A stretch of DNA of 64,000 nucleotides from a virus (lineage: Duplodnaviria; Heunggongvirae; Uroviricota; Caudoviricetes). Below the pieces are notes generated by a model that saw only the letters and a list, made by a program, of their open reading frames with translations, searched no databases and was not told the DNA's origin. The translations under genes were made by a program, and so were the position numbers. Within the stretch, counting starts at the first letter, position 1. The number at the start of each line of letters is the position of its first letter. This document shows, piece after piece, positions 277-58,094 of this stretch. The stretch lies in IMG/VR virus record IMGVR_UViG_3300020200_000004; one strand, written 5' to 3'.

Positions 277-302
277 ATTTTACTCCTTTGTGCTATTATA
301 GT

Positions 303-332: not shown

Positions 333-343
333 TCGATGCCCTT

Positions 344-459
344 GCTATCCTTTTTAGACCCACTTCTCAGTGGCCATTGTTTAAAGTCCCAAAGAATTAA
401 TACGACTGATAACCGAGCTATCCTTTTTAGACGCACTTCTCAGTGGCCATTATTTAGAG
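344..459. repeat. Two ~43-bp imperfect direct repeats (344-386 and 417-459) immediately 3' of minus-strand tnpB; candidate omegaRNA/right-end region
   Basis: gctatcctttttagacCcacttctcagtggccattGtttaAag versus gctatcctttttagacGcacttctcagtggccattAtttaGag. Confidence 0.5.
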
Positions 460-479
460 CCTCAAAGGATGAAATAAGG

Positions 480-1706: not shown

Positions 1707-1743
1707 GCAAATTAATATAAACTAAACAAACATATAATACAAT

Positions 1744-2664
1744 ATGAAAATTGATATACTTGGCTTCTACAACCAAAATGCTGGCGACTCTCAATATAAA
1801 GTCTCCTTCCCAATCCTTTTCCCTCATCATAAATTCAATTTTGTAAATGACATAAAACCAAACAAGGAAAGGGATTGCGTAATTTTAGGCGGTGGGGATG
1901 TATTAAATGACTATTTCTATAAAGAATTGCAAAAAGCAGATTGTAAGAAATATGCTATGTCTGTAGATAGATCGCCATTATCACCTAAATTTGAAGAGAT
2001 ATGCGAATCTATTATTTACAGAAATGAAGACTGTCCAGATTTTGCTTTCGCACTTAAGGCAAATAAAGAGAACGGAAAAAAACGTCTTAAAAGTTTAGCT
2101 CAAGGCATAAATTTATACGAAAATGTGATTGCTATTGTAGTTAATGCTTATTTGCAGAAACAAGGAACTGATCAATTAGCCAGAGAATATCTTAATTTTC
2201 AGAAAGTTGCGTTCGATTTGGCTCAGGTTATTGACGCCACAAATGCTAGCTTCATTTTTATCCCATTTTGCACATCTTTCCCAGCTAATGACTGTCTGAC
2301 GAATTCTGTGGTTTATTCTAAAGCAAAATTCTGGGATAAAAACTTGATGATTTTTGAACCATTGCCGTTTTATGACATTCTGGATATAATATCTGTTTGC
2401 CAAGCTTGTGTGACAACTAGACTTCATGCAGCCATTTTCTCCTGTATCGGCGGCACACCTTTTGTAGATTTAACTCATCATGATAAGAATAGAAGGTTTA
2501 TAGAATACATTGATAAGCCTTGGAGTTTAGATTATTGGCATTTTGATTCATCTAAATTAAAATTTTGGTTGGATGAATTCATTTTAAATCAAGAAAAATA
2601 TCGTGCGGAAGTAAGTAAAATAAAAGAAAAAATTGAATTTACAAATGTGAAAAATGCGATATAA
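1744..2664 (+). CDS. Polysaccharide pyruvyl transferase-like
   Basis: 306 aa; ILGGGDVLND and TRLHAAIFSCIGGTPFV resemble CsaB/WcaK-type pyruvyl transferase motifs. Confidence 0.4.
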   Translation: MKIDILGFYNQNAGDSQYKVSFPILFPHHKFNFVNDIKPNKERDCVILGGGDVLNDYFYKELQKADCKKYAMSVDRSPLSPKFEEICESIIYRNEDCPDFAFALKANKENGKKRLKSLAQGINLYENVIAIVVNAYLQKQGTDQLAREYLNFQKVAFDLAQVIDATNASFIFIPFCTSFPANDCLTNSVVYSKAKFWDKNLMIFEPLPFYDILDIISVCQACVTTRLHAAIFSCIGGTPFVDLTHHDKNRRFIEYIDKPWSLDYWHFDSSKLKFWLDEFILNQEKYRAEVSKIKEKIEFTNVKNAI

Positions 2665-2841
2665 TGTTGCATGGACAAATCATTGATGAGACGAGTTCTA
2701 ACTTACATGTTGGAAAATGATTTCACCAAGCCAATTGAGCAGGCAGTTGTTTTGGCCATGATGAATCGCCTAACTAAAGAAGAACAAGAAACTGTTGAAA
2801 GAATTTATAAAGAATTAATCGAAGAAGAAAAAGAGTGAAAA

Positions 2842-3669
2842 ATGGCTGAAAATACGAAGATTCAATGGACGCACCACACGCAAAATTTTTGGGTTGGCTG
2901 TACAAAAGTAGCGCATGGCTGTAAATTCTGTTACGCTGAAGAATTAATGGCTAATCGTTACAAAAGAGTTAAATGGGGGCCAGAAGGCGTTAGGTCTAAG
3001 ACAAAGACATGGCATGATCCTATTAGATGGAATAAGAAAGCAGGCGAATTAGGCGAAAAACAGAAAGTCTTTGCTTGTTCCTTGTGCGATGTATTTGAAG
3101 ATCGCCCAGAGTTAGTCCCTTGGAGAAAAGAAGCATTTGAATTAATAGATAAATGCCCAAATTTAGACTGGTTGATGTTAACTAAAAGACCTGGCAATAT
3201 AGTTGATATGTGGCCAGATACTTTCCCCACGTTAAGAGAGAATGTCTGGTTGGGCACAAGTATTTCATTACAGGACGAAGTGGATTCTGCTGTATCTGCT
3301 TTGTTGACTGCTAAGGAATTATGCCAGTATTTGTTTTTATCAGTTGAGCCTCAGATTGGCAAAATTGATTTATCAGACTATTTGTTTCCCGAACCGTTAG
3401 TGGATTGGGTTATTGTAGGTGGGGAAAGTAAACAAGGCAAGGAAGACCCAAGGCCATTTGATATTGAATGGGGTAGGTTTTTGTTGAATCAGTGTCAAGA
3501 AGCTAGTATCCCTTGTTTCATGAAGCAATTTGGTTCTATTGTTTACGATAATGGAGTCAGGGTGCATTTTAAGGATGGGCATGGTGGTGATTGGGATGAA
3601 TGGGCAGATGAATTACGTGTAAGGGAATGTCCAGAATCTGGCAAAGAACCACAATGGAGCAAAATATAA
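2842..3669 (+). CDS. Phage Gp37/Gp68-family protein (DUF5131-like)
   Basis: N-terminus IQWTHHTQNFWVGCTKVAHGCKFCYAE matches the Gp37/Gp68 IEWT..WNP..GC...GC..CYA pattern. Confidence 0.55.
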   Translation: MAENTKIQWTHHTQNFWVGCTKVAHGCKFCYAEELMANRYKRVKWGPEGVRSKTKTWHDPIRWNKKAGELGEKQKVFACSLCDVFEDRPELVPWRKEAFELIDKCPNLDWLMLTKRPGNIVDMWPDTFPTLRENVWLGTSISLQDEVDSAVSALLTAKELCQYLFLSVEPQIGKIDLSDYLFPEPLVDWVIVGGESKQGKEDPRPFDIEWGRFLLNQCQEASIPCFMKQFGSIVYDNGVRVHFKDGHGGDWDEWADELRVRECPESGKEPQWSKI

Positions 3670-3711
3670 AACTTTTCGACAAAGAAAAATGTTTGAAGCT
3701 GTTGGCCATTC

Positions 3712-3725
3712 TTAATTGTACCAAG
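3712..3725 (+). promoter_or_regulatory. Conserved motif TTAATTGTACCAAG, copy 1
   Basis: Exact 14-mer 8 nt upstream of ATG 3733. Confidence 0.5.
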
Positions 3726-3732
3726 TAGACCC

Positions 3733-4017
3733 ATGAAAACCATTTGGCAAAAAATTGGCAGTCGAAGCGGCCCAAGAAGTGATGAATTACCAAAACAAGT
3801 TCCAGAAAAAGGGACTTGGGATGATGACCGTGGACAAATTATTGCTTACCACATTGATCAAGATGGTAATGTAACTATCGGTGACGTTTTATGGCGTCGT
3901 GGTCGATGGGAAAAGCAATATGATAATGTAACTAAAAGGGATGAAATCAATTTTTGCCTTTATGGTCCAGGCTATTCTGACTATGAGTGCACATGTGTCA
4001 AGGTAGAAGAATTTTAA
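3733..4017 (+). CDS. Hypothetical protein (94 aa)
   Basis: ORF with ATG start directly after motif copy 1. Confidence 0.4.
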   Translation: MKTIWQKIGSRSGPRSDELPKQVPEKGTWDDDRGQIIAYHIDQDGNVTIGDVLWRRGRWEKQYDNVTKRDEINFCLYGPGYSDYECTCVKVEEF

Positions 4018-4094
4018 TTGTACATTGCAATTCGCACTTCATCCGTAAAGTGACCTGTATTTTAGCTATTCAGGTGTAGAATTGCAAGAGAATT

Positions 4095-4108
4095 TTAATT
4101 GTACCAAG
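4095..4108 (+). promoter_or_regulatory. Conserved motif TTAATTGTACCAAG, copy 2; a degenerate copy ttaattgtacattg lies at 4015-4028
   Basis: Exact 14-mer in the 240-bp intergenic region upstream of the sigma-factor gene. Confidence 0.45.
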
Positions 4109-4154
4109 AAGGGCATGAACCTTTTGGTTTTTCTGTGTCTCTTGTAAAAGGAGA

Positions 4155-4182
4155 TTGACAATTTCAGCATTTTCTGTACAAT
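4155..4182 (+). promoter_or_regulatory. Host-type sigma-70 promoter (TTGACA-16-TACAAT) upstream of the sigma-factor gene
   Basis: ttgaca at 4155-4160, 16-nt spacer, tacaat at 4177-4182, about 75 nt upstream of ATG 4258. Confidence 0.5.
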
Positions 4183-4257: not shown

Positions 4258-5220
4258 ATGGGGATTCCTAGCATTTCACTTTCCAAGGAAGAATTGGAAC
4301 AAAATTGCCGCATTATGCGTAAGGGTAACACAATCTTACGCAAGTTCAGCGAAATAACTGGACTCAGCTTAAAAGCATTCCGCATCCGTCTATTCAAGGT
4401 TGGTCCAGATGTAAAGGAGAACTGGCCTGAATTGACCTTGGCACAACTGGAAGAATTGCAATTTGGTTGGAAGGCAATTCAGCATATCAAGGCAATTGAA
4501 TGGGATATGATTCAGTGTTTTTCTCGCCTTGTGCATCAGCTTGCTTCTCGTTTTTGCAAAGGTTATCAGCTACGCACCAGTGGCTCAATTATTTCGATTG
4601 CCGATTGCGTTCAAGAAGCTACTTTAGCTTTAATTGATGCAATTTTCACTTATGATAATGAAAAAATTAAGTTTATTACCTATGCATTTACGTGTATCAG
4701 GAATAAGCTGACTCAGATGGTTGCCAAGAATGCTCCTCTTAGCCCATTGACAGGGGAAGTGCCTGATTTGATGCGTCGTTATGAGATTCAGAAGGCAAGT
4801 TATAATCGTCATGTGACTGATGATGAGGTTTTCGCTGATCTTAAGTTGGACGAGCGGGAAATTAAGATTTTGACCAAGGCTAAAGCTAAGGTTTGGACTT
4901 CTAGGGAATGGCGTGACACCGATGAATCTCGTAGTTTTTCAAATGACTATACTGAGGCTCGTCATGGCATTGAACATGAGAAGCCTTTCCCGGCTGACTT
5001 TGAAATTGAAGAAGTAATTGGCCGGGCTGGTTTGGATGAGATTGAGAAGAAGATCATTGCTACAGCTATACGTCCTTATGCTGGGTGGCAGACTGATCTT
5101 GCTGCAAACAATATCAATCCAAACACTGGCAAGCCTTATACCCGTCAGCGTATGGGTCAGATTGTGCATGCTGCCTATGATAAGGTTCGCAAGGCATTGG
5201 CGTTAACTGAGAGTAGGTAA
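4258..5220 (+). CDS. Sigma-70-family RNA polymerase sigma factor (phage-encoded)
   Basis: 320 aa; region-2-like ADCVQEATLALIDAIFTYDNEKIKFITYAFTCIRNKL (FxTYA..IR); C-terminal region-4-like TRQRMGQIVHAAYDKVRKAL. Confidence 0.55.
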   Translation: MGIPSISLSKEELEQNCRIMRKGNTILRKFSEITGLSLKAFRIRLFKVGPDVKENWPELTLAQLEELQFGWKAIQHIKAIEWDMIQCFSRLVHQLASRFCKGYQLRTSGSIISIADCVQEATLALIDAIFTYDNEKIKFITYAFTCIRNKLTQMVAKNAPLSPLTGEVPDLMRRYEIQKASYNRHVTDDEVFADLKLDEREIKILTKAKAKVWTSREWRDTDESRSFSNDYTEARHGIEHEKPFPADFEIEEVIGRAGLDEIEKKIIATAIRPYAGWQTDLAANNINPNTGKPYTRQRMGQIVHAAYDKVRKALALTESR

Positions 5221-5260
5221 GAGTGTGGTGTTTTAATTTTACTAAGCTCTCTTATCTCCT

Positions 5261-5296
5261 GCCTGTAGGGATAGCCTTAACCCCTACAGGCTTTTA
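5261..5296 (+). terminator. Rho-independent terminator after the sigma-factor gene
   Basis: cctgtaggg-atagccttaa-ccctacagg stem followed by cttttaatt. Confidence 0.6.
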
Positions 5297-5326
5297 ATTA
5301 TCTTTGTAAGGGACAATGAAAGCGGA

Positions 5327-5362
5327 GTGCCGTTCTATTCTTACGGGAATAGAAGGAAGCAC
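5327..5362 (+). promoter_or_regulatory. Conserved 36-nt hairpin element, copy 1 (UUACGGG loop; 3' arm overlaps the SD)
   Basis: gtgccgttctattcttacgggaatagaaggaagcac; 32 of 36 nt identical to 17143-17178; stem ttctattc/gaatagaa; AAGGAAG SD for GTG 5365 lies in the 3' arm. Confidence 0.5.
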
Positions 5363-5364
5363 CT

Positions 5365-6093
5365 GTGACAAACAATCTAATTAAATATCTGAATAAGCGT
5401 ATTATCCCTTGGCGAAACGATTTTGGGTTGCCAAGGGATATTGCCCATAAAACCCATAGCCCCGTTAATATTTTAATATTAAATGCGGCGACTGAGGTTA
5501 ATAGGTATAATTCACCTTTTTGGGCAACCAAGGAACAATGGAATTCAGTAGGTTGTAAAGTTAGATATTGGGAACAGCCAACTTTAAGTTATTACAACAA
5601 AGACCAAGTAGATGGAAGCTTTGCTTGTGCTGCTGACCCTGTTATGTCTTTTAATGAAGTTGATAAGTTAATTGTTGATACCAAGGTTAATATAAAGTTT
5701 TCGCATAAGCTTATTGCTGAATATCATTATCCACCCAATGATTACATTTTGTTTCCTTATAAAATTCATTTTGATATGGGAGAAGGTAAGGAAGCTGGGT
5801 ATTACAATGCAATTTTCCATGAATTAGCCCATTTTACAGAACCTAAATTGGGTTGGGAATCTGAAAAGTATGGTGTGCCGGTTACTGAGTTACGTGCTGA
5901 AATAGCTGCTGACTTCATCACTTCTTATCTGCGTCTCCCACGATTGGCTTTTAATTTAAGAAGTAACCATCACAAGTGGATGGCAGATTGGGTCATGGCT
6001 TTGTCCTATGCTCCAAATTTGCTTGTTGCGGCTGCTGCTTCGGCTTACAATGCATTTAGATTGATTGTGAAGAAATATGCTAACGTATATTGA
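5365..6093 (+). CDS. ArdC-like protein (N-terminal ssDNA-binding-like region plus HExxH metallopeptidase-like motif)
   Basis: 242 aa, GTG start; NRYNSPFWATKEQWNSVGCKVR resembles the ArdC-N (DUF1738) motif; HELAH motif downstream. Confidence 0.4.
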   Translation: MTNNLIKYLNKRIIPWRNDFGLPRDIAHKTHSPVNILILNAATEVNRYNSPFWATKEQWNSVGCKVRYWEQPTLSYYNKDQVDGSFACAADPVMSFNEVDKLIVDTKVNIKFSHKLIAEYHYPPNDYILFPYKIHFDMGEGKEAGYYNAIFHELAHFTEPKLGWESEKYGVPVTELRAEIAADFITSYLRLPRLAFNLRSNHHKWMADWVMALSYAPNLLVAAAASAYNAFRLIVKKYANVY

Positions 6094-6502
6094 AGGCGAT
6101 CTGTTTAATTCAAAATGCGAATATGTTATATGCACCGTGAACTGTATTGGTGTAATGGGAAAAGGAATTGCTTTAGAATTTAAGAAGCGATACCCAGAAA
6201 TGTACTTGGCTTATAGAGAGGCTTGTGATAAAGGGGAAGTTAAAATAGGAAAGATGTGGGTTTGGAATAATATTATAAATTTTCCCACTAAAGATGATTG
6301 GCGTAACCCTTCCAAGCTAGAGTATATTAAAGCTGGGTTGTTGGACTTGAAAGTGGTTGTAAGAGAAAGAGGAATAAAAAGTCTTGGGATGCCAAAATTA
6401 GGTTGCTCCAATGGAAAATTAACGTGGGAAGATGTTAAAAAGCTAATTGAGATATTTCATTCAGTGGTTCCAGAATTGGATTTGCAAGTTTATTTAAAAT
6501 GA
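6077..6502 (+). CDS. Macro-domain protein, OARD1/TARG1-like (terminal ADP-ribose glycohydrolase family)
   Basis: EGDLF...CTVNCIGVMGKGIALEFKKRYP and LGMPKLGCSNGKLTWEDV parallel human OARD1 EGDLF...[21 protein letters not shown] and LSMPRIGCGLDRLQWENV. Confidence 0.7.
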   Translation: MLTYIEGDLFNSKCEYVICTVNCIGVMGKGIALEFKKRYPEMYLAYREACDKGEVKIGKMWVWNNIINFPTKDDWRNPSKLEYIKAGLLDLKVVVRERGIKSLGMPKLGCSNGKLTWEDVKKLIEIFHSVVPELDLQVYLK

Positions 6503-7140
6503 TTAATCCTTTTCGCATTACTTTTTCTGGAGTAGATGATACAATTACTCCAGAAGCACTGGCCAGTTTCCAAGTAGACTATCCTGAAATCGACTTGGAA
6601 TGGGGGGTTTTGCTGTCCAAGAAAAGAGCGGGAACAGCAAGATATCCTAGCCTTGACTGGTTAGAGAAGGTAGCAAGATATACTATTTTTTTCAAAGATA
6701 AGTTTAAATTGAATTTAGCTGGTCATCTTCAGGGGCAATGGTTGCAAGAGGTAATAAATGGCGAATTCATGTTTCCTAGTTTGTGGAAAAAGTTATTCAG
6801 AAGGATGCAGTTAAATTTTCATGGGCAGACATTAAATGATAATTTTCCCAATAATTTGAAACTTCGTCCTTTAAATTGGGATATGGATTGCAATATATTC
6901 CAAGTTGTTAATGGCGATGATAGATTGGTGCATAAAGCAAGGAAATTAGGTATAAATGTTTATCCTCTTTATGACTCATCTTGTGGGAATGGCAAAGTAC
7001 CTGACTTTTGGATTAAAGGGTATTTTGATGTAAATGGTTTTGCAGGTGGGTTGGGACCGGATAATATAAAAGAAGAATGGTTTAAGATAGTCGATGCTGC
7101 TGATGGAAAAGACTTCTGGATTGATTGTGAAACACAATAA
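6499..7140 (+). CDS. Hypothetical protein (213 aa)
   Basis: ORF in operon-like + strand run; no motif recognised. Confidence 0.4.
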   Translation: MINPFRITFSGVDDTITPEALASFQVDYPEIDLEWGVLLSKKRAGTARYPSLDWLEKVARYTIFFKDKFKLNLAGHLQGQWLQEVINGEFMFPSLWKKLFRRMQLNFHGQTLNDNFPNNLKLRPLNWDMDCNIFQVVNGDDRLVHKARKLGINVYPLYDSSCGNGKVPDFWIKGYFDVNGFAGGLGPDNIKEEWFKIVDAADGKDFWIDCETQ

Positions 7141-7194
7141 GAACGGATGAAAAGTTTGATTTAGAGAAATGCAAGAAAGTTATAGAAAACATAT

Positions 7195-8241
7195 ATGAAA
7201 TTCACACATTTGCTAGAAATTAAATTAGGGACTTGGTTTGGCATCAAGGTTATTTTAGACTTATGTTTGGTTGTTTTATGGATAACCTTGGCGATAATAA
7301 ATTTCAGTTCTATTGCAATTATATTATCTGTTTATGCATTTGTGCTTTTGCATGAATTTGGGCATGCGTTAGTTGGTAGATATATGGGGTTAAATTGTTA
7401 TCAGATAAAGATATATCCATTTGGAGGGTGCGCCTCATTTAGTAGCGAAATGGATGTGGGATATAAAGAATTTTGGATGGTTGCTGCTGGTCCGTTTGTA
7501 AACATAGTATTGGCATATATCTTTTGTGGTTTGTATTTTGTTTGCCCAAGTTATTTTTTATCTCAATGCACCACTATTAATTTGGCATTAGCTATATTTA
7601 ATTTAGTCCCTCTTTTTCCTATGGATGGCGGGCGTCTTGCAAGAATAGTATTTAATAAAATATTCAACAATACAATAAAAGCTACTCGTTTAGTCAACAT
7701 TGTGGGAATACCCCTGGCTTTGGCCCTATTTGTATTAGCTGTATATTCTTCCAATTTCATTTTGGGCATTATTGCTTTAATAATGCCTTTGGCTGGTACT
7801 TATGAACTTTCTGAGTTAAAACATAAGAAAAAGGCAAAACTTTATTTAGAGGCAGCTTATGCAGCAAAGAATCATGATTATGAAACTCAAGAAAGAATAT
7901 CTAATGAATTACACAGTGACGGGACAAGTGATATAATTAAGAATTATTTTTATATCGAACCCGATTACAAACTGGATTATATCATAGAAGTTTTGGAAAG
8001 CGATTTGGAAGGATATAAAAAGACAGGAGAATTCTTGAAATTTGCTATAGATTTTCACAAGTCTGTAAATGAAAAATTAAAAACATTGCATAAAATGATA
8101 AATGAAGATTTCGCTGACGGAGTATATTACAGAACTAGATTGTGCATTGACAATTTACAGCATAGAGCTTACAGAAAAGAGTTGGAAGAAATTCTTGATA
8201 AGCGTGGTTATATGACAAGATATGCACCTTTTATTAATTAA
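7195..8241 (+). CDS. Site-2 protease family (M50) membrane zinc metalloprotease
   Basis: HEFGHAL (HExxH) in a hydrophobic segment plus NLVPLFPMDGG (LDG-type motif); multiple predicted TM helices. Confidence 0.7.
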   Translation: MKFTHLLEIKLGTWFGIKVILDLCLVVLWITLAIINFSSIAIILSVYAFVLLHEFGHALVGRYMGLNCYQIKIYPFGGCASFSSEMDVGYKEFWMVAAGPFVNIVLAYIFCGLYFVCPSYFLSQCTTINLALAIFNLVPLFPMDGGRLARIVFNKIFNNTIKATRLVNIVGIPLALALFVLAVYSSNFILGIIALIMPLAGTYELSELKHKKKAKLYLEAAYAAKNHDYETQERISNELHSDGTSDIIKNYFYIEPDYKLDYIIEVLESDLEGYKKTGEFLKFAIDFHKSVNEKLKTLHKMINEDFADGVYYRTRLCIDNLQHRAYRKELEEILDKRGYMTRYAPFIN

Positions 8242-8821
8242 CATGAATAAAATTAAGTTAAATAAGGTAGTTGACAGGCAATTTGTGCAAAAGCTATTGT
8301 CTGTAGGCAGAGCCTTTGATGTAGACCAAGGCGGATACTATGATGCCAGATCGGGAGTGGTAAATTTTTGGTGCGGGCCGGATAATAAGCCTTCTTGTTG
8401 GCCTAACGACATTAAAATTGGTGGTCTTAAGCATCCAAGGGATTATGTGGGCGGGTTATATTGGGAAGTAGAAGGGGACGAATTCCATCTTTATTTGGAA
8501 GCTGATCCGTTTAGTTTGCTTGAATTTAGGAGCGGCGACAGATATAATAAGGATTGTCTGTCCAAAGATGATTCGGATTCTGTTTTTGATTGGTTAAAAG
8601 AGCAAGCTGATGGTTTAATACGTTTGGCTGGTGTATCTGTGGAATCAAAGGGTACTAAATGCCCTTTTTGTGATTATGTTTCGCCGCCTACTGAACTTTT
8701 GAATGATTTAATGGATCATATGGAAGGGCATGATGGTGTAAAGGTTACAGGTATATTTATGGGTAAGTCAATTGTCATTGAAACCAACCGTGGCGACTTG
8801 ACATTAGAGGAAAGTTGGTAA
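8222..8821 (+). CDS. Hypothetical protein (about 193 aa; probable start ATG 8243)
   Basis: ORF; CPFCDY zinc-ribbon-like pair near the C-terminus. Confidence 0.4.
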   Translation: MHLLLINMNKIKLNKVVDRQFVQKLLSVGRAFDVDQGGYYDARSGVVNFWCGPDNKPSCWPNDIKIGGLKHPRDYVGGLYWEVEGDEFHLYLEADPFSLLEFRSGDRYNKDCLSKDDSDSVFDWLKEQADGLIRLAGVSVESKGTKCPFCDYVSPPTELLNDLMDHMEGHDGVKVTGIFMGKSIVIETNRGDLTLEESW

Positions 8822-17142: not shown

Positions 17143-17178
17143 GTGTCGTTTTATTCTTACGGGAATGGAAGGATGCAC
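17143..17178 (+). promoter_or_regulatory. Conserved 36-nt hairpin element, copy 2 (spans the start codon of the IDO-like gene)
   Basis: gtgtcgttttattcttacgggaatggaaggatgcac; 32 of 36 nt identical to 5327-5362. Confidence 0.5.
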
Positions 17179-18283
17179 AGCAACAGAGAGCAAACTAATG
17201 CGAAGTCACTTTTGGGATGTAGTGGTAAGGGGATTTTTACCCATTCGTGATCCTGTATTAAAGGGAGATTTATTTGAAAAAATACCCCTTACAGGATCAA
17301 GGAATGAAATATTTAATTATTTAAATCAAAATAAAGTTGATTTAACAGCATTTGTAAACAATGAAGAAGATTGTGAACGGCTCTTTAGAATGTATTCCTA
17401 TGCTGCTAGTGCCTTTATTCATTCCCAAAGTGAACCGCCTACAAACGTTCTACCAAAAGAAATAGCCGTACCTTTAGTTAAGTTCTCTCAGATACTAGAC
17501 AGAAAGCCAATTCTATCATATGGTAGCTATTGTTTAAATAATTGGCAAAGAATAGATGTTACCAAACCTGTAGAACTAGGTAATATTCGTTTATTGACGC
17601 ATTTTTGCCCTATTCCATATAATCGGGATGAAGCTTGGTTTATTCTGGTGCATGTGGATATAGAAAATTCAGCAGCTTTGGGTATTTTTGCTTGTCATTC
17701 GATGCTTTTGCAAGACCCCTTAACACCTGAATTTGCTTTCTTTGTGCTTAATCAGATAAAAACCAGTCTGATTAACATGAATAAAGCCTTGAATAGAATG
17801 CCAGAAGAATGTAGCCCAGAGCATTATTTTTTATTCGTTAGACCTTATATATTCAGCTTTGAAAATGTTGTTTATGAAGATTGTTTTCATGGTAAACCGC
17901 AAACTTTTAGGGGTGAAACAGGGGCACAAAGTTCTATAATACCTGCTTTTCTTGCAGCATTGGAGATAAAGCATAAAGATTCAATGTTGACTCATCATTT
18001 GCAGGAAATGCGGGATTATATGCCTAAAGACCATCGCATTTTCCTGAATAATTTAGAAAATAGTTCTGTGCATCTAAGGGAAGTGGCTAAGAAAGACAGC
18101 AAGTTAAAGCCTTTATATAATGAATGTTTAATGCAACTTATTGATTTTAGAGAAAAACATTTTGAATATGCTATTAACTATATTGCTAATAAAGTAGAGA
18201 ATCCTAAAGGTACAGGAGGAACACCTTATGTGCCTTGGCTTAAGCAGCTGAAAGAAGAGACTAAGCAGCAAATTTTGGAGTAA
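17165..18283 (+). CDS. Indoleamine 2,3-dioxygenase (IDO)-family heme dioxygenase-like protein
   Basis: GETGAQSS, LQEMRDYMPKDHRIFL and KGTGGTPYVPWLKQLK parallel human IDO1 GGSAGQSS, LQDMRRYMPPAHRNFL and KGTGGTDLMNFLKTVR; a His is present where IDO has its proximal His. Confidence 0.65.
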   Translation: MEGCTATESKLMRSHFWDVVVRGFLPIRDPVLKGDLFEKIPLTGSRNEIFNYLNQNKVDLTAFVNNEEDCERLFRMYSYAASAFIHSQSEPPTNVLPKEIAVPLVKFSQILDRKPILSYGSYCLNNWQRIDVTKPVELGNIRLLTHFCPIPYNRDEAWFILVHVDIENSAALGIFACHSMLLQDPLTPEFAFFVLNQIKTSLINMNKALNRMPEECSPEHYFLFVRPYIFSFENVVYEDCFHGKPQTFRGETGAQSSIIPAFLAALEIKHKDSMLTHHLQEMRDYMPKDHRIFLNNLENSSVHLREVAKKDSKLKPLYNECLMQLIDFREKHFEYAINYIANKVENPKGTGGTPYVPWLKQLKEETKQQILE

Positions 18284-23425: not shown

Positions 23426-24412
23426 ATGGAATTCAAGACCTTTATAGAAAATCAATATAAACTTTTTGGCAAAGATGCTCAAAGAATTACAACAAATGAG
23501 CTAAAACTAGTCTTTTATGAACTAAAGACTCTCATTGGTAACTCTTTCCCAGAAATGGAACTTACAAGGTGGCTTCCCGCTAAAGAAGATCACGGCGATA
23601 TTGATATCCTTGCTCATTCTCGGCAAACACCCGTCAAAGACATTCTTGCAGCTAATTTAGGCAACCAATTAGTCAAATTCAGCAAGAATGGCAACGTCAA
23701 TTCTTTTTTATTCAAAAGCAATCTAATCAACAAAGTCGTTCATGTCGATCTTATTACTTCTCCACCCGATTTGATGGATGCAAAACGTAATTATTATGCC
23801 TTTGGTGATGCCAGCTTTGTAATAGGTGTTATATCTAAAAAACTACATTTTAAATATGGGACAGAAGGGTTCTTTAAGAGATTTAAGGATCAAGGAACAA
23901 TCTGGCACGATATTCCAGTTACTAATAATATGAAAGAAGCCATGTTGATTCTTGGCTTTTCTAATCCTGACCAATTTAATCAAATTAAGACTAATGATGA
24001 TACTGTAGCTTTTATCGCTACCAATCCTTTTATTGATTCCAGTTGGTTTATGCATGAGAATTTAATTTCTAAAGATAAACAGAGCCAGAATCGCAGAAAA
24101 GGCGCTGATTATATTCTTGATAAACTTAAAAGCTTAAATTTAAAAGGTAAAATTACAGATGAAGACTATTTCTTTAAAACCCTTTATCCTGAAAAATATA
24201 AAGAAGTTGAAGAACAAAAGGTAGCATTAAATCAAAAAGCATATGTTAAAGCTTCCAATTATAATGGTTATTGGTTAATGAATAAATTTGGCATTAAGCC
24301 TGGACCGCAAATAGGAAATATATTAAGATTAATGACTCAGAAGTATGGCGATCAATTGGATAATGTGCCAGAACCAGAAGCGATAGAGTTTGTCAAGGGA
24401 ATTATGAAATGA
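23426..24412 (+). CDS. Hypothetical protein, possibly Pol-beta-superfamily nucleotidyltransferase
   Basis: 328 aa; GNSFPEME...HGDIDIL fits the [GS]x9-13 DhDh pattern. Confidence 0.3.
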   Translation: MEFKTFIENQYKLFGKDAQRITTNELKLVFYELKTLIGNSFPEMELTRWLPAKEDHGDIDILAHSRQTPVKDILAANLGNQLVKFSKNGNVNSFLFKSNLINKVVHVDLITSPPDLMDAKRNYYAFGDASFVIGVISKKLHFKYGTEGFFKRFKDQGTIWHDIPVTNNMKEAMLILGFSNPDQFNQIKTNDDTVAFIATNPFIDSSWFMHENLISKDKQSQNRRKGADYILDKLKSLNLKGKITDEDYFFKTLYPEKYKEVEEQKVALNQKAYVKASNYNGYWLMNKFGIKPGPQIGNILRLMTQKYGDQLDNVPEPEAIEFVKGIMK

Positions 24413-24869: not shown

Positions 24870-26042
24870 ATGCTTGTAGCAGAACGACATTATATACAAG
24901 AAACACTTGAAATTGTCCGACTATGTACATTAAGCAAAGAACTTTACAATAAATGCAATTTCTTGATGAGGCAAGCATGGTTTATAAATGAAAAATTACC
25001 TAATATAAATTTGCTTGTTCGAGAGACAAAGCCATTAGACTGTTACAAAAACCTTCACAACACCAAAACAGCAGCACAAACAATACGTAAATGTCTTGTA
25101 GATTGGGCAAACTTCCTCAAAACCCTGAAAGCATACAAGAAAGACCCAACAAAATTCAAAACTAGACCTAAACCGCCTTATTATAAAAATAAACTCACAC
25201 AAATTATATTCTTTAATGAAACTATCAAGAAAAGACCATTGAAACAAGATGTAATTACCCCAACGAACAATCTATTTTCAATTAAAAGTGACATTAAAGA
25301 ATTTAAGCAAGTAATGATTACTCCTAAAACATTTGGTTTTATAGTAGACATTCAATATGAAAAAGAAGTCAAGAAAGTAAAAGTAAGCAAGAATAGGTTT
25401 GCCTGTATAGATGTTGGTGTAAATAATTTAGCTACGATAACTTCAAACCAACTGGAGCATCCCATATTGGTTAATGGTCGCATACTAAAAAGCATCAATA
25501 GATTCTATAATAAAAAACCTAATAAGAATAATAGTAGGAAACGTTATTTCCGTATTGAGAATTATTTCCATCATGCTTCTAAATTTATAATTGATTTATG
25601 TATTAAACATAAAATTGGCAAAATCATTATCGGTAAGAATGATGGTTGGAAGCAATTTTCTAAAATACGAAAAGTACAAAACCAAAATTTTCAATATATT
25701 CCTTTTTATAAATTTTTAGATAAGATTAAGTATAAAGCAACATTAGCGGGCATTGAAGTTATATTTACTGAAGAATCATATACAAGTAAAGCAAGTTTCC
25801 TTGACCATGATTCAATACCAACTTATAAAAAAGGCAATAAACCTCCTACTTTTTCTGGTAAAAGAGATAAAGGAATGTATAGAACATTTAGACCTATTCA
25901 TGCTGACGTGAATGGAAGTTTAAACATAGGATGTAAAGTATTCGGGGATAAAGTCTACAAGGCTTTCCCTGATAGGAGCATTGCCGCAATGCCAGTACGA
26001 ATTAATCCATTGAAGATTTTTGCATATAACAGCAAAAATTAG
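24870..26042 (+). CDS. tnpB: TnpB-like protein (OrfB_IS605 family), apparently nuclease-dead (TldR-like)
   Basis: 390 aa. RuvC-I FACIDVGVNNLA and RuvC-III HADVNGSLNIGCK are present. The RuvC-II position reads KIIIGKNDGW (Gly where the catalytic Glu is expected). The zinc-finger cysteines are absent (ESYTSKASFLDHDS...). Confidence 0.65.
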   Translation: MLVAERHYIQETLEIVRLCTLSKELYNKCNFLMRQAWFINEKLPNINLLVRETKPLDCYKNLHNTKTAAQTIRKCLVDWANFLKTLKAYKKDPTKFKTRPKPPYYKNKLTQIIFFNETIKKRPLKQDVITPTNNLFSIKSDIKEFKQVMITPKTFGFIVDIQYEKEVKKVKVSKNRFACIDVGVNNLATITSNQLEHPILVNGRILKSINRFYNKKPNKNNSRKRYFRIENYFHHASKFIIDLCIKHKIGKIIIGKNDGWKQFSKIRKVQNQNFQYIPFYKFLDKIKYKATLAGIEVIFTEESYTSKASFLDHDSIPTYKKGNKPPTFSGKRDKGMYRTFRPIHADVNGSLNIGCKVFGDKVYKAFPDRSIAAMPVRINPLKIFAYNSKN

Positions 26043-39301: not shown

Positions 39302-42300
39302 ATGTCGCAATTTAAGACAGTTGAGAATTTTAAGGATATTTTAATGTTAAAAGAAAAAACTACTTTGCGATCCTATCAGCTGCTTCTATTAGATAATCAT
39401 GATTTAGTAGAAAAGACGATAGATGTTTATACAAAAGGAGCTTCTGCTTGGTTGGACTTTTGGCTTACTGTTTTGGGCGGTATAGAATTTGAGATGATTC
39501 CATTATCTCCTCTTAGCAGTTATTGTATTACTAAAAAATTAAAGAGGAAATCCCAAGAAGATAAAGAAATATTTATTCCTATTAGCGAAGAAGCTTTATT
39601 GTTTGGCTGTTGGTTTTCTTTAGAAACGAATAGCAATTCGCCATTCATTATTTCTGTTCAAGATGTTTGGAACAAGTTCAAATCTTATCTGCCGAATAAT
39701 GTGAAAATAAGCTACAATTGGGAAAGAACTATCAAAGCACAAATTAATTCCTTTGTGTCTGAGAATACTTGTTGGGTAGATAGAAGAAAAGCATTTCAAG
39801 ACCTATCATTTAAAATTAATGTTGCTGATCTTGTTTGTAAAAAAGATTTTTGGCTTAATAAAGATGTGGATAGCAAATTGTATATGAGAAGTGCCTTGGG
39901 GCAATGGTGGAATGATGGAACAAAATCAGATTGGGTTAATCTTAAAATTAAATGTGAACAGTCTATAAAATTTATCGAACAAGAATCAGATATCAGAAAT
40001 GCAAAAACAAAAATTCTACAATCTCTTGGATTGCCAGATATAGCAGAAGCTAAAGAAATTGGCAAAGCTTATGGCAAAAAAGGAAAGCCTTCCAGAGTGT
40101 TTATTAAATTGGAAAAATTAACAGAAGATACTACCAAAGACCAATTGGTTAAGGAATTTCAAGAAGAAATTGTAAACGCAGAAGAACATGTTGCTTTTAA
40201 GCGTTGTCCCTGGCATGCGAAAATTAGAGAAAACATTGAAAAAGCAATAGGTGTAAGTTATTTTAATGAAAAAGGTAATAGTAGTCAAAATAATTTTGGA
40301 GAAATGGGCAATCTTGCTCTTGAAAAAATTAAAAGTTGGAAATCTAATTTTTTTAATGTCTTAGGAGAAAGATATCATAACTGTAAATCTGATTTCCATG
40401 ATTCAGAGGTAAAAGAATGGTTTGAAGAATACAAAAAAACAAACAAACAACTTAGAAATAGCAGCCTTTCAGGACTTGAAAAAGTATTTGATTTACTAGA
40501 TAACAAGTCTTTTGAAGATGCTATTAAAGAAGCCCAAAAATCCTACAACATTCTTGGAAGAAGATTTGGAGACGCTAACTTTTTCAACTTTTTAGGCAAT
40601 AAAATTCAGTCCAGAAAGGACAAAGATTGGTTGAAATTAATACGAGAATATGATAATTGGGATAATGTAAATTACAAATTTATAAATCATAAAAGTCCAA
40701 GACTTAAGCATTTTGGGGATGATCACTTAGCCACTCCTAGATTTGGGGAGTCAAGACCAACAGGCAATATCAAAAGCACAACTGGAAATAGTCACTCAAT
40801 TACATTGAATGTTTTCGATGGCAAATCATTCAAACTGACTAAAATTAATTCTGCTTGCAAAAGATTGTCTAATGAAATTAAAGATAATCAATCAATTAGA
40901 CAGACTAAGTTATCTGGAAAAATCTTTGAAAACTATCGAATTCTTCCTAAGAGTTTAGTTAAAAAGGGTGGACTTAAACTTTGTAAACAAAATGATAAAT
41001 GGTATGCCCATCTAACAGTCAATTTGCCAGTATTTGAAAAAGCTTCATGGCAAAAATTGATGAAAACCGGCACCATAATAATGAGTATAGACCCTGGTAT
41101 TAGAAGTTCTATATCATATACTATATTTGAAATATTTGAATGTGATCGAGATACAGATTATTTTATTGAAAATGGCATTACTCATGTGAAAATACATTCA
41201 TGGGAAGATCATAGTGGTACTAAGTTTAAAGTGCCTCATAATAATTTGTGGGTTAAATTGTTGGAATGGGGACATATTCGTGATCTACAACCTATTGGCG
41301 AAAATGGTTATCGTCAGTGCAGATTAGATGGTGGAACAAACACCAATTTAGACTCAGAAGAAATAGAATTTTGGAAATATCTTTTAATAACTGGTGTTGA
41401 GCAAAAAGACATGCCTGATCCTTTGCCAAAAAGGTCTGAATATTCTAGAATTATTGCAAATTTAATTAACAAGTGGTATACAAACAAATCAAAAGAAATT
41501 ACAGATAAGGTTAAACAACTAAATATTAATGATCCTGTAGAGTTTTCAAAAACTTTACAACATGTAAGAAAAGAAAGCGATTTATCATCAGAATTATTGA
41601 TAAAGGCGTCCCAAATATTATTTGTAAATAATTCAGATAAAATTGGGAGAGGCGGGTTATCCTATGCTAGAATTAAGATGCTCCAAACACTTTCTTCTGC
41701 TTGTAATAAATTCTTAAAAGTTAAAGAAAATAATGCAGAAATTATTGAATTTCAGAATTTTCTTAGAAAGAAAATTAATGCCATAAGAACGGAACGAGTA
41801 AGAATTACTGTAAACAAAGTTTTGCATGAAGCTGTCAATAACAAAGTAAATCTAATTCTATATGAAAATACCCAACTAAAATCTTCTTCCAGTTCCCCCA
41901 GAGGTCTTAATAGAAGTATAACATCCTGGTGCCCGTCAAAAGTAATCGAAGAATTGAAAAAACAAATAGATTTGTTGCCAATTTCTATAATGGGAGTAAA
42001 CTCTGCTTATACGTCTCATAACTGTTTTGTAACTTGCAAGAAAAAATGTCGTTATGATAAAGTTCATTTAGATGATCTTAATATTGAGCCTTGGAAAGAA
42101 AGAATAACCGATATTTTTACAAAAAAACAATTAAGCTTAACTGATTGTTTGTTGAAAAAAGGTTGGGAAAATTTCCTGAAAGAAAATGACTTGATGAGCT
42201 ACAAACAAATACCTGAATTTGTTAAAAACAAAAAAGCTTTTTGTTTAGTTCCCTCCAGGACAGGAAAATTGTTTGTTACAGAAATTGGAGAATTGAATGC

Positions 42301-42364
42301 TGATATCGCCGCTGCTGCTACAATAGGAATGAAAGGTCTTGCAATAATCCTATCCAAAGCTTAA
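39302..42364 (+). CDS. cas12: Cas12-family (type V) CRISPR effector-like protein, RuvC-only single effector; subtype not assignable by eye
   Basis: 1020 aa. C-terminal RuvC split in TnpB/Cas12 order: RuvC-I IIMSIDPGIRSS (D597), RuvC-II NLILYENTQLKS (E855), Cys/His cluster HNCFVTCKKKC (906-916), RuvC-III GELNADIAAAATIGMKGL (D1001). About 590-aa N-terminal helical region. The gene lies immediately upstream of a co-oriented CRISPR array. Confidence 0.75.
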   Translation: MSQFKTVENFKDILMLKEKTTLRSYQLLLLDNHDLVEKTIDVYTKGASAWLDFWLTVLGGIEFEMIPLSPLSSYCITKKLKRKSQEDKEIFIPISEEALLFGCWFSLETNSNSPFIISVQDVWNKFKSYLPNNVKISYNWERTIKAQINSFVSENTCWVDRRKAFQDLSFKINVADLVCKKDFWLNKDVDSKLYMRSALGQWWNDGTKSDWVNLKIKCEQSIKFIEQESDIRNAKTKILQSLGLPDIAEAKEIGKAYGKKGKPSRVFIKLEKLTEDTTKDQLVKEFQEEIVNAEEHVAFKRCPWHAKIRENIEKAIGVSYFNEKGNSSQNNFGEMGNLALEKIKSWKSNFFNVLGERYHNCKSDFHDSEVKEWFEEYKKTNKQLRNSSLSGLEKVFDLLDNKSFEDAIKEAQKSYNILGRRFGDANFFNFLGNKIQSRKDKDWLKLIREYDNWDNVNYKFINHKSPRLKHFGDDHLATPRFGESRPTGNIKSTTGNSHSITLNVFDGKSFKLTKINSACKRLSNEIKDNQSIRQTKLSGKIFENYRILPKSLVKKGGLKLCKQNDKWYAHLTVNLPVFEKASWQKLMKTGTIIMSIDPGIRSSISYTIFEIFECDRDTDYFIENGITHVKIHSWEDHSGTKFKVPHNNLWVKLLEWGHIRDLQPIGENGYRQCRLDGGTNTNLDSEEIEFWKYLLITGVEQKDMPDPLPKRSEYSRIIANLINKWYTNKSKEITDKVKQLNINDPVEFSKTLQHVRKESDLSSELLIKASQILFVNNSDKIGRGGLSYARIKMLQTLSSACNKFLKVKENNAEIIEFQNFLRKKINAIRTERVRITVNKVLHEAVNNKVNLILYENTQLKSSSSSPRGLNRSITSWCPSKVIEELKKQIDLLPISIMGVNSAYTSHNCFVTCKKKCRYDKVHLDDLNIEPWKERITDIFTKKQLSLTDCLLKKGWENFLKENDLMSYKQIPEFVKNKKAFCLVPSRTGKLFVTEIGELNADIAAAATIGMKGLAIILSKA

Positions 42365-42451: not shown

Positions 42452-42489
42452 AGTCTCTCGCCCTTATTTAAAAATAAGGGCGAGAGACT
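42452..42489 (+). other. Perfect 15-bp-stem hairpin between the cas12-like gene and the CRISPR array (terminator-like but without a U tract)
   Basis: agtctctcgccctta-tttaaaaa-taagggcgagagact. Confidence 0.45.
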
Positions 42490-42713
42490 ATGTGGTGAAA
42501 AACGTTGGAAAAGAAAATTTTTCTTAAGTCCTGATGAATTAAGCTTTTGCGATAAAGTTATCCTGTGCTGCCTATCGCTCGTTTTAAGTCTTTATTTGAA
42601 AAAGGTTTATGGCATCAAACCAATAAAATTCGGATATGCAGTTGTTCTAAAGTAATTGCCTCTCGCATACTTGTTTGTAAGTTGTTTTATTAAAAGGCTT
42701 TATGCAAATGAGC
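42490..42713 (+). promoter_or_regulatory. AT-rich CRISPR leader (putative)
   Basis: About 220 nt AT-rich sequence directly upstream of the first, non-degenerate repeat; the degenerate repeat is at the far end of the array. Confidence 0.4.
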
Positions 42714-44534
42714 GTTGCAATAGATTAAAACAATGTGCTGTTATTGGCACTTCGGCGTCATCGTCGGCATGGCCGCCCTGGTCCTGGTTGCAATAGATTA
42801 AAACAATGTGCTGTTATTGGCACACCAATGGCCAGTTTCAGAAAAGCACTTTTTCAATGTTGCAATAGATTAAAACAATGTGCTGTTATTGGCACAAATA
42901 AAACCAGCCAGTAACCGCTATATCCGCAAAAGTTGCAATAGATTAAAACAATGTGCTGTTATTGGCACTATTTGATTGTACATTGCATTACAATCGCCGT
43001 TTTTGTTGCAATAGATTAAAACAATGTGCTGTTATTGGCACCCAAAGGCCAGTCTCCGCCTTTGGCGCTCAAGAGCGTTGCAATAGATTAAAACAATGTG
43101 CTGTTATTGGCACCGATACAATGAAAGTAATCACGTGCACGATGGCAAGGTTGCAATAGATTAAAACAATGTGCTGTTATTGGCACGTCAAATATGGAGT
43201 AGGATGAAGGGCGAATTTTGGAGTTGCAATAGATTAAAACAATGTGCTGTTATTGGCACTGGAGGCTAAGGACTAACAAGAAGAAACTAGGAATGGTTGC
43301 AATAGATTAAAACAATGTGCTGTTATTGGCACGGAGTCCAGATACCATAGTTAATTCGTTGCAATAGATTAAAACAATGTGCTGTTATTGGCACACTAAT
43401 CAGCCAATCTTCTTAGGTGTTGATCTTTCGTTGCAATAGATTAAAACAATGTGCTGTTATTGGCACCGAACCGCCCTTGCCGCCGCCGTACACCTTAATG
43501 GTGTTGCAATAGATTAAAACAATGTGCTGTTATTGGCACTATCCGCAAAAAAAGAATGTGTCAATGCAAGGGTATTGTTGCAATAGATTAAAACAATGTG
43601 CTGTTATTGGCACCCAGCTTGGCAATCTGTCCTTCAATGTGCGTTCTTTGTTGCAATAGATTAAAACAATGTGCTGTTATTGGCACTATAGTGTATGCAC
43701 CGACTAATATATAATAGTAGCGTTGCAATAGATTAAAACAATGTGCTGTTATTGGCACTTTTTGGTCCTCGTCGTGGCCGTACACGTGATCGAGGTTGCA
43801 ATAGATTAAAACAATGTGCTGTTATTGGCACTCCAGTTATTGCTTGTTACTGAGAGAAGGGCTGGGCAGCGTTGCAATAGATTAAAACAATGTGCTGTTA
43901 TTGGCACTATAGCAATCGATTATCTCCGCATCGTCCAGTAGATGTTGCAATAGATTAAAACAATGTGCTGTTATTGGCACCTGCGCAGCGTAGAAGGTTG
44001 TTTCGTCGATGACCTGGTTGCAATAGATTAAAACAATGTGCTGTTATTGGCACAAACGTGACAAAGAGGTTGCAATAGATTAAAACAATGTGCTGTTATT
44101 GGCACATGAATTCGCCAGTGGCGACATGTCGGTCCGTGTCTGGTTGCAATAGATTAAAACAATGTGCTGTTATTGGCACTTGATGCTCTGCCCCAGACTT
44201 TCGTGGAAATCCGTGTTGCAATAGATTAAAACAATGTGCTGTTATTGGCACGGCATTTGCTTAGCCACCTCCGCACTCTTACACTTCTGTTGCAATAGAT
44301 TAAAACAATGTGCTGTTATTGGCACAATGTTCCAGACTTGCTACTACCTAATATGTTTCCGTTGCAATAGATTAAAACAATGTGCTGTTATTGGCACGTG
44401 CGAAGGTTGCCGGACTGCTTATGTTGCAATAGATTAAAACAATGTGCTGTTATTGGCACTGGAACGCACTTTTTCTTTTTTGCGATGCAGCAAGGAAGTT
44501 GCAATAGATTAAAACAATGTGCTGTTATTAGCAC
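42714..44534 (+). CRISPR. CRISPR array: 26 direct repeats of 37 bp (GTTGCAATAGATTAAAACAATGTGCTGTTATTGGCAC), 25 spacers
   Basis: Most spacers 35-37 nt; outliers 39, 38, 25, 25 and 15 nt. Repeat 4 carries a 1-nt deletion. The last repeat (44498-44534) is degenerate (..TTAGCAC). A 3' stem GTGC-N8-GCAC sits in each repeat next to the spacer. Same orientation as the cas12-like gene. Confidence 0.95.
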
Positions 44535-46077: not shown

Positions 46078-46151
46078 GCCCCTGTAGTTTAATTGTGCAA
46101 AACGTGCTACTTTAGATAGCTAAGATGTGGGTTCGAATCCTGCCAGGGGCG
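46078..46151 (+). tRNA. tRNA with predicted anticodon UUA (ochre/UAA-suppressor-type)
   Basis: Cloverleaf by hand: acceptor gcccctg/caggggc, D-stem gttt/aaac, anticodon stem gcta/tagc with loop cTTTAga (U33, anticodon TTA, R37), variable loop aagat, T-arm gtggg-ttcgaat-cctgc. One t-t mismatch at the top of the anticodon stem. Confidence 0.5.
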
Positions 46152-52309: not shown

Positions 52310-53233
52310 ATGAATGATAAGGTAAAAGGAGCATTGTGGGGAGGAGTTGTGGGAGATTCAGCTGGGATGTGCGCCGAATTCCTTCCGAGAGGGAGTTTTC
52401 CACCAATTACTGGATATAGAAGCGGTGGGCCATTCAATTTAGAAAAAGGGGCATTCACCGATGACACTTCTATGGCCTTGTGTTTGGCTGATAGCATTGC
52501 CACTGTTGGTTGGGACTTGAAAGATCAATTGAAACGGTATGTAGATTGGTATGAAAATGGAAAATATTCAGTAAATGGTAAATGTTTTGATATTGGCTGT
52601 ACAACTAGGCATGCTTTAAATGAATTTATTCGTACTGGAGAAGTTAATGCAGACCTAGACGAAAATGCTTCTGGCAATGGTTGCATAATGAGACTTTCTG
52701 CCGTTCCAGCCTATTATAGATATCTTTTCCCTCACTATTTGCCTGAATTAATGGTAAAGGCCGAAGAGTCTAGTGCAACAACTCACGGAAGCGAACAATG
52801 CAAATCTAGTTGTCGTTATATGACTGCAATTATTTGTGCTTTTATTCATGGAGATTATACAAAAGATGAAGTTTTATCAACAAATTGGAGAATACTAAAA
52901 GAAATTGAAAACTTAAAGCCTTTGCATCCTTTAGTTAAAACTATTGCAAATGGCAGTTTTAAAACAAAAACTTTAGAAGAAATTGATTCATCAGGATGGG
53001 TGATTGCTACGCTTGAAGCGGCAATTTATTCATTTTATCATTCGAATAGTTTTGAAGAAGCAGTATTTCGTTCTTGCAACATGGGATTAGATGCAGATAC
53101 GGTAGGTTGCGTTACAGGCCAAATTGCTGGTGCGTATTATGGTTTTGATGCTATCCCCAAGGAACTAATTGAAGGTTTGAGTAGAAAAGACATGCTGGAA
53201 GAATATTTCGGCAAGTTATATAAAGGAAACTAA
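52310..53233 (+). CDS. ADP-ribosylglycohydrolase (ARH/DraG family)
   Basis: GALWGGVVGDSAGM and GAFTDDTSMALCLADS N-terminal signatures; C-terminal GLDADTVGCVTGQIAGAYYG. Confidence 0.8.
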   Translation: MNDKVKGALWGGVVGDSAGMCAEFLPRGSFPPITGYRSGGPFNLEKGAFTDDTSMALCLADSIATVGWDLKDQLKRYVDWYENGKYSVNGKCFDIGCTTRHALNEFIRTGEVNADLDENASGNGCIMRLSAVPAYYRYLFPHYLPELMVKAEESSATTHGSEQCKSSCRYMTAIICAFIHGDYTKDEVLSTNWRILKEIENLKPLHPLVKTIANGSFKTKTLEEIDSSGWVIATLEAAIYSFYHSNSFEEAVFRSCNMGLDADTVGCVTGQIAGAYYGFDAIPKELIEGLSRKDMLEEYFGKLYKGN

Positions 53234-58023: not shown

Positions 58024-58094
58024 GGCCCCATAGCTTAAGAGGAAAGCAGGGTGCTTATAACGCCAAGACGGTAGTGCGACTCTACCTGGGGCTA
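58024..58094 (+). tRNA. tRNA, predicted anticodon UAU (Ile, AUA-reading); short
   Basis: Acceptor ggcccca/tggggct, D-arm gctt-aagagga-aagc (GG in loop), anticodon loop cTTATAa, T-arm ggtag-tgcgact-ctacc; the anticodon stem has one mismatch and one G-U pair. Confidence 0.45.

Follow-up and report, generated by a model that had tools for sequence, protein, structure and literature searches.

Can the CRISPR array of a phage that carries no adaptation genes have taken spacers twice from one target? The question is raised by a locus within a 64,000-nucleotide stretch of DNA from a tailed virus (Caudoviricetes; IMG/VR record IMGVR_UViG_3300020200_000004), referred to below as the window. Judged by its genes and repeats, the locus is a CRISPR-Cas system of type V-I in a T4-like phage. 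The original prediction proposed that spacers 3 and 12 of its array are adjacent protospacers of one contiguous target, acquired repeatedly from a single site in a manner resembling priming. Our analysis indicates that the two spacers probably do come from one target stretch of about 62 bp, sampled twice on the same strand. The cause of the double sampling is the least certain step of the explanation.

Spacers 3 and 12 overlap end to start

The last 11 nt of spacer 3 and the first 11 nt of spacer 12 (Table 1) are the same string, TATCCGCAAAA, identical at 11 of 11 positions and in the same orientation. The two spacers merge without conflict into a sequence of 62 nt, with the junction CGCTATATCCGCAAAAAAAGAATG, in which their starts lie 25 nt apart on the same strand. 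This exact end-to-start sharing at a 25-nt offset had been described correctly in the original prediction, as had the limits of spacer 12 (43540-43576); position 42932, given there as where spacer 3 ends, already belongs to the following repeat as its first G, and the spacer ends at 42931. Both spacers have a similarly low GC content (0.39 and 0.35). Three of the six reading frames of the merged 62 nt are open when read directly, and frame 2 resembles the end of a gene (TAA) followed by a possible start.

Exact end-to-start overlaps of at least 11 nt, counted for any pair in any orientation, were rare. They arose in 9 of 10,000 shuffles that preserved composition within each spacer, and in 14 of 6,339 sets made up of pieces taken at random from the AT-rich window. 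When every pair was scanned without gaps at all offsets, spacers 3 and 12 gave a log10 p of -6.25, better than 200 of 200 shuffles. The signal lies in the register and not in mere sharing, because shared 11-mers are common and their end-to-start placement is rare. The end-to-start register is the sole configuration that overlapping protospacers permit.

Target and flanking motif of spacer 1

A 22-nt piece of spacer 1 matched 13 genomes, 12 of them by a seed of 22-23 nt only and one over all 36 nt. The full match lies on contig Ga0194131_10000260 of a Planctomycetota metagenome-assembled genome (locus L013, 4674-4709, minus strand), from the same Joint Genome Institute (JGI) sample as the phage contig, Ga0194131_10000472. 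We take the samples of both contigs to be from Lake Tanganyika. Eight more contigs, from several samples, also have the site and its flank, ...GCTGTTC, intact, nine in total (one site is at L026, 10484-10519). The protospacer lies in frame within a HAMP sensor histidine-kinase gene adjoining leuS, and the target is chromosomal, since housekeeping genes surround it. The GC content of this Gemmataceae-like Planctomycetota chromosome is 65%, as against 35.5% for the phage. Spacer 1 directly links a T4-like lake phage to a gene of a Gemmataceae-like Planctomycetota chromosome, and the assembly of its target from the same sample shows that the array takes up contemporary DNA. No further protospacers were found within 10 kb either side of the site. 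A 19/20 match of spacer 11 near the spacer 1 protospacer was rejected as a GC-rich chance match, with no TTN flank and 25/36 identity overall.

The spacer 1 match with its TTC flank shows the reading strand of the array to be + and its protospacer-adjacent motif (PAM) to be 5′-TTC, as known from this one spacer. The canonical Cas12i PAM is 5′-TTN (PMC8190297), and spacer 1, the one spacer that has been mapped, has it as TTC in all nine contigs. The reversed orientation of the array, in which the flank of spacer 3 would be TTT, is rejected in view of the spacer 1 PAM, the position of the repeat hairpin, the degenerate last repeat and the arrays of relatives.

A second staggered pair

Spacers 2 and 25 form the second-best ungapped overlap of the array (log10 p -4.5), and a second-best overlap this good was seen in 1% of shuffles. 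The bases of spacer 2 directly before the overlap are TTC, which gives spacer 25 a canonical PAM as its implied 5′ flank. If real, this imperfect pair would stand for a single site in two allelic forms. The two pairs are arranged alike: the newer spacer shares the strand of the older, sits towards its PAM, and reaches 11 nt (spacer 3) or 19 nt (spacer 2) inside the older protospacer. Spacers 2 and 3 follow each other directly in the array.

Counted from the PAM, cleavage by Cas12i1 falls at 13-15 nt on the non-target strand and at 24 nt on the target strand (PMC8190297). The ends of spacers 3 and 2 both fall upstream of the 24-nt target-strand position; relative to the non-target-strand cuts, the end of spacer 3 is just upstream and that of spacer 2 beyond. 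By analogy with Cas12i1, this geometry would fit capture of the PAM-side cleavage product, although it is suggestive only. The idea is weakened because there are just two pairs, one of them imperfect, and because spacer 12 has, as described below, a poor PAM, with which it is at odds.

Two other similarities that involve these spacers were noted. Spacers 2 and 5 have 13 of 15 nt in common at their 5′ ends, with a one-base offset (CCAATGGCCAGTTTC and CCAAAGGCCAGTCTC). Spacers 12 and 25 were considered as one region on opposite strands (12/13 with a gap) and set aside, as the similarity comes from a T/A run and several gaps would be needed.

Evidence against a shared target

Several observations weigh against a single target and speak for coincidence, in which spacers 3 and 12 would have unrelated targets and an A-rich 11-mer would have fallen at an end and at a start by chance. 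The shared 11-mer is indeed A-rich. A shared 11-mer at any position was present in 6.8% of shuffled sets, which makes it poor as bare evidence, and the best local-alignment score, reached by 13% of shuffles, is unremarkable alone. The register statistic was picked post hoc, and its p of about 1e-3 is approximate.

The flank that the overlap implies for spacer 12 belongs to the same set of observations. The joined sequence places ...CCGCTA before spacer 12, giving a flank of CTA and not TTN, and no TT occurs in the 10 nt upstream of spacer 12 within the joined sequence. Unrelated sequences would give a flank other than TTC or TTN about 90% of the time. The original prediction had suggested inspecting the flanks for a shared PAM; CTA is implied for spacer 12, as against TTC for spacer 1. 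Where primed adaptation would have a cognate or near-cognate PAM recognised by the effector, the flank implied for spacer 12 is CTA, one transition from TTA.

The CTA flank genuinely counts against the simplest reading, without being decisive. The PAM is known from one spacer, in a protein that matches characterised Cas12i only by family profile; acquisition in trans need not follow the effector's PAM; and spacer 3 could derive from a PAM-escape variant (TTA to CTA) of the site of spacer 12. A shared target therefore demands an extra assumption, namely a relaxed PAM in a divergent ortholog, PAM-independent acquisition in trans, or a PAM-escape variant.

Nor was the target found. Exact scans gave no match in viral contigs to nt 1-23 of spacer 12, nt 10-31 of spacer 3 or nt 15-37 of spacer 12 (the last avoiding the A-run), none in JGI metagenome contigs to nt 4-24 of spacer 12 (spacer 12 only), and none in GTDB genomes to nt 10-31 of spacer 3 (spacer 3 only). 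With the joined 62-mer as query, BLAST returned from GenBank phages just chance matches of 18-22 nt, and for none of the spacers did BLAST yield a match in phages or plasmids at E ≤ 1. When peptides from the joined sequence's three open frames were compared with 5.8 billion protein clusters, none had three 5-residue words in common with them; this peptide search is blind to an intergenic or non-coding target. The viral and metagenome nulls are weak because these collections evidently omit the source contig: it was returned neither for the phage's own repeat nor for spacer 12, though the JGI contig carries both. A negative scan of these collections thus tells little on targets from the same samples.

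Exact scans of viral contigs with spacers 5, 2, 1 and 13 likewise gave no match. A 7-residue resemblance of a spacer 3 frame to the window open reading frame (ORF) at 23426-24412 did not extend and was rejected.

The original prediction had recommended a search with the joined 62 nt in metagenomic reads or contigs. With the joined 62 nt no target was found in GenBank phages, and the piecewise contig scans were empty too. Of its claim of one contiguous target, the overlap is real and in the required register; the target has not been found, and we infer its contiguity from the sequences of the two spacers alone.

Set against these points are the rarity of the 11/11 register in both shuffled and random sets, and the second staggered pair, which favours a repeated process over two coincidences. 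By our estimate the overlap favours a shared locus about a thousand-fold, the PAM mismatch costs it three- to tenfold, and the prior for overlapping spacers in an array of such size is about a percent; for these reasons we consider a shared locus likely and coincidence unlikely.

The effector and its guide RNA

The effector ORF had no match in Pfam, and as a single sequence it gave only sub-threshold matches of its C-terminal RuvC part to Cas12b and TnpB models. At 90% identity it formed a cluster of itself alone among 5.8 billion. Exhaustive searching with HMMER brought up 39 relatives, of which the best has 39-40% identity and most have about 20-26%. A profile of 33 relatives matched Cas12i2 (6LTP) over its full length with E=5e-87 (profile 5-992, chain 4-1029) and Cas12i1 with E of about 3e-64, and the best PADLOC model for the effector was Cas12i (E=4e-24). 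By these profile comparisons the effector is shown to be a divergent Cas12i ortholog, type V-I.

The RuvC motifs are intact: IDPG (D597), LYEN (E855) and NADI (D1001). The RuvC triad of Cas12i2 is D599/E833/D1019 (PMC7567891); D597 and E855 of the phage protein align to D599 and E833, and D1001 occupies a near-invariant column of the family.

The 26 copies of the repeat have a 37-nt consensus, GTTGCAATAGATTAAAACAATGTGCTGTTATTGGCAC, whose 3′ end folds as a 6-bp hairpin adjoining the spacer. In Cas12i2 the CRISPR RNA (crRNA) likewise has a hairpin handle next to the spacer (PMC7567891). No reverse-complement copy of the repeat (anti-repeat) was found in the window with up to six mismatches allowed. 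A repeat-derived hairpin handle followed by a spacer, without a trans-activating crRNA (tracrRNA), is the form of a type V-I crRNA, and processing to this form is predicted from the repeat sequence.

The phage system thus resembles Cas12i1 and Cas12i2 (Yan et al. 2019; structures 6W5C and 6LTU) in the full-length profile match, the RuvC triad, a repeat of 36-37 nt ending in a hairpin and ...TTGGCAC before the spacer, the lack of an anti-repeat, and a TTC PAM (one spacer). It differs from them in that single-sequence searches reach only the C-terminal RuvC part of the phage effector.

Two relatives of the effector, each with 30% identity, also lie beside arrays. In L006 the gene (204-3347) is followed by an array (3525-4164) of at least seven repeats, which have the same 3′ hairpin and TTGGCAC end as the phage repeat. 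In L025 the gene (4840-8124) is followed by a mini-array of three repeats (8279-8416); this locus is phage-like, with a UvrD helicase, an RNA ligase and TnpB near its Cas12i. No cas1, cas2 or cas4 was found near the relatives' loci L006, L024 and L025.

Adaptation genes and comparison with other phage loci

Neither Cas1, Cas2 nor Cas4 was found among the 92 ORFs of the window (Pfam, among the 25 of 45 families listed; PADLOC, among all 25 hits), and the genes called up to 10 kb to each side of the locus included none of them. The lack of Cas1 and Cas2, which had been put forward as notable, is borne out across the 92 ORFs; it is, however, usual for phage-borne CRISPR loci, which are generally without adaptation genes (PMC7162821). 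Phage-encoded Cas12i has already been described, and other CRISPR-bearing phages likewise carry guides against bacterial genes (PMC7162821).

Like the type V-I loci that huge phages carry (Al-Shayeb et al. 2020, PMC7162821), the present locus has a Cas12i effector beside an array in a phage genome, has no Cas1, Cas2 or Cas4, and carries at least one spacer against a bacterial chromosome, here one from the same sample. It differs in that its effector matches Cas12i1 and Cas12i2 through the family profile only, and in that its array is not compact, with 26 repeats as against a phage-array median of six (PMC7162821). What sets the locus apart more is this array size, not the missing Cas1 and Cas2.

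The overlap might have formed in a bacterial locus with Cas1-Cas2, from which the phage later captured effector and array, with no acquisition since. This explanation concerns the place of insertion and not whether spacers 3 and 12 share a target. It would account for the related Cas12i genes on GC-richer, possibly bacterial contigs with similar repeat ends (L006), and for a repeat number far above the phage median. It fits poorly with the perfect match of spacer 1 to a Planctomycetota chromosome in the same samples, as an owner of that lineage would self-target. The effector and repeat share the low GC of the phage, and the array of the phage-like relative L025 also stands without cas1 and cas2. 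We regard a bacterial origin of the overlap as improbable, and return to acquisition in the phage.

Cause of the proposed double sampling

To our knowledge, type V-I loci in general are without adaptation genes, and there is no established priming in type V systems. The array would be transcribed from the leader on the + strand, and the adjacent Cas12i-type nuclease would cut the transcript into crRNAs, each with the repeat hairpin as its 5′ handle followed by the spacer. These crRNAs would guide the nuclease to DNA with a 5′-TTN PAM. Guides 3 and 12 would cover one site twice, the shared 11 bases serving guide 12 as its PAM-proximal seed and guide 3 as its PAM-distal tail. As the phage is without Cas1 and Cas2, we infer that insertions are made by adaptation proteins acting in trans, presumably supplied by the host. 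Spacer 12 would have been acquired first and spacer 3 at least nine insertions later, because spacer 12 lies deeper in the array. The putative target is AT-rich (35-39% GC), unlike the 65%-GC chromosome matched by spacer 1, and most probably a different phage or a mobile element.

As in primed acquisition of type I systems and acquisition primed at the Cas9 cut site in type II-A, the newer spacer adjoins, on the same strand, the site that the older one matches; spacers 2 and 25 may be a second example in the phage array. The phage locus differs from those systems in having neither Cas1-Cas2 nor Cas3, two spacers per putative cluster, and an implied PAM of the older protospacer (CTA) that is non-canonical. 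Primed adaptation would further involve Cas1-Cas2 working with the interference machinery of the same system, and no adaptation genes lie in the 64-kb window. The clustering evidence for priming is the 11-nt overlap only.

The same locus could also have been sampled twice independently, without priming, through an acquisition hot spot (such as one close to a free end of the target DNA) or through selective retention of guides against a conserved site. Such sampling shares the claim of one target and differs in the cause of repetition only. Eight other spacers lie between spacers 3 and 12, so the two events were well separated in time; the locus is without adaptation genes that could be coupled to interference; and if the CTA flank is true, Cas12i guided by spacer 12 would cut poorly and hardly yield substrates. 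Yet two sites 25 nt apart form a tight cluster among 25 spacers of otherwise diverse sources (GC 0.31-0.69), and the pair of spacers 2 and 25 has the same geometry. Unprimed double sampling is a serious contender, if somewhat short of an even chance.

That the double hit arose from acquisition coupled to the targeting of the older spacer is doubtful, the remainder of the probability falling to a favoured or selected site that was sampled independently. Priming in trans, in which Cas12i guided by an old spacer (12 or 25) would cut the target and leave a PAM-side end from which host proteins captured spacers 3 and 2, is a distinctly slim prospect.

Structure of the array and neighbouring genes

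The features of the locus are collected in Table 1.

Table 1. Features of the CRISPR-Cas locus, in positions of the window
Feature	Position	Strand	Description
cas12i-like effector gene	39302..42364	+	1020 aa from first ATG; in databases, start 39344 and 1006 aa
Perfect hairpin after cas12i	42452..42489	+	Probably its terminator; agtctctcgcccttatt ... aataagggcgagagact; read directly, not called by consensus scan
Leader	42490..42713	+	AT-rich, between effector gene and first repeat; assigned by position
CRISPR array	42714..44534	+	26 repeats of 37 nt, 25 spacers
Spacer 1	42751..42786	+	Leader-proximal; 36/36 match to Planctomycetota sensor histidine-kinase gene, PAM 5′-TTC
Spacer 2	42824..42858	+	3′ 19 nt resemble 5′ 19 nt of spacer 25 (14/19, including GCACTTTTTC)
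Spacer 3	42896..42931	+	36 nt, AAATAAAACCAGCCAGTAACCGCTATATCCGCAAAA; last 11 nt are the start of spacer 12
Spacer 12	43540..43576	+	37 nt, TATCCGCAAAAAAAGAATGTGTCAATGCAAGGGTATT; first 11 nt are the end of spacer 3
Spacer 25	44460..44497	+	Leader-distal, presumably oldest; partner of spacer 2 in imperfect overlap
Terminal degenerate repeat	44498..44534	+	G to A in ...TTATTAGCAC; marks leader-distal end

The leader is placed where it is because the degenerate repeat lies at the opposite end and spacer 1, the newest-looking spacer with its perfect contemporary target, lies at the leader end. A consensus scan found no promoter in the leader (42490-42713). The order of spacers 1-13 is identical in two independent assemblies, the JGI contig and a MEGAHIT contig from the European Nucleotide Archive that ends at spacer 14, and this agreement makes mis-assembly of the array unlikely. 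No self-targeting was detected within the window, the longest match being 13 nt.

Spacers are typically 35-39 nt long, mostly 35-37 nt. The exceptions are spacers 9 (43333-43357) and 24 (44398-44422), both of 25 nt, and spacer 19 (44054-44068) of 15 nt; deletion and aberrant insertion are both possible explanations. Spacer 5 (43042-43076) is an inverted repeat in itself (CCAAAGGC...GCCTTTGG). The similarities between spacers that rank third to fifth were also above those of shuffles (p 0.003-0.013).

PHROGs matches in the window include rIIA (2.9e-117), rIIB (3.1e-71) and endonuclease VII, with a Pfam match to Phage_T4_rIIB. Homing endonucleases, NUDIX and thioredoxin genes and tRNAs are also present; structural phage genes were not found in the window. 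For the tRNA at 46078-46151 (+), ARAGORN gives the anticodon UUA, which would read the UAA stop, and the ORFs look normal in the standard code. The tRNA at 58024-58094 (+) was detected by Rfam only, and its anticodon loop suggests UAU by eye.

Besides the Cas12i gene, the window contains TnpB-like ORFs (IS605 OrfB / Cas12f1-like TNB) at 480-1706 (-) and 24870-26042 (+). The ORF at 17165-18283 (+) has a Pfam match to indoleamine 2,3-dioxygenase (IDO; 5e-58), an unusual auxiliary gene. A sigma-70-like factor, an ArdC-like anti-restriction protein, a macro-domain protein and an ADP-ribosylglycohydrolase lie at 4258-5220, 5365-6093, 6077-6502 and 52310-53233, and the PADLOC model DarG matches one window ORF at 2e-57.

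Implications

Overlapping spacers are a familiar pattern of CRISPR arrays, and without its target this overlap adds little alone. Firmer by-products of the analysis are a divergent ortholog of Cas12i whose natural PAM is TTC, and the link between phage and Planctomycetota provided by spacer 1. Priming in trans, if true, would be type V priming acting on a viral array, and would explain growth of the array to 25 spacers. Should spacers 3 and 12 stem from a single site, the array would be a record of one target sampled repeatedly by a locus unable to insert spacers itself, and this would bear on how phage arrays without adaptation genes gain and renew their spacers.

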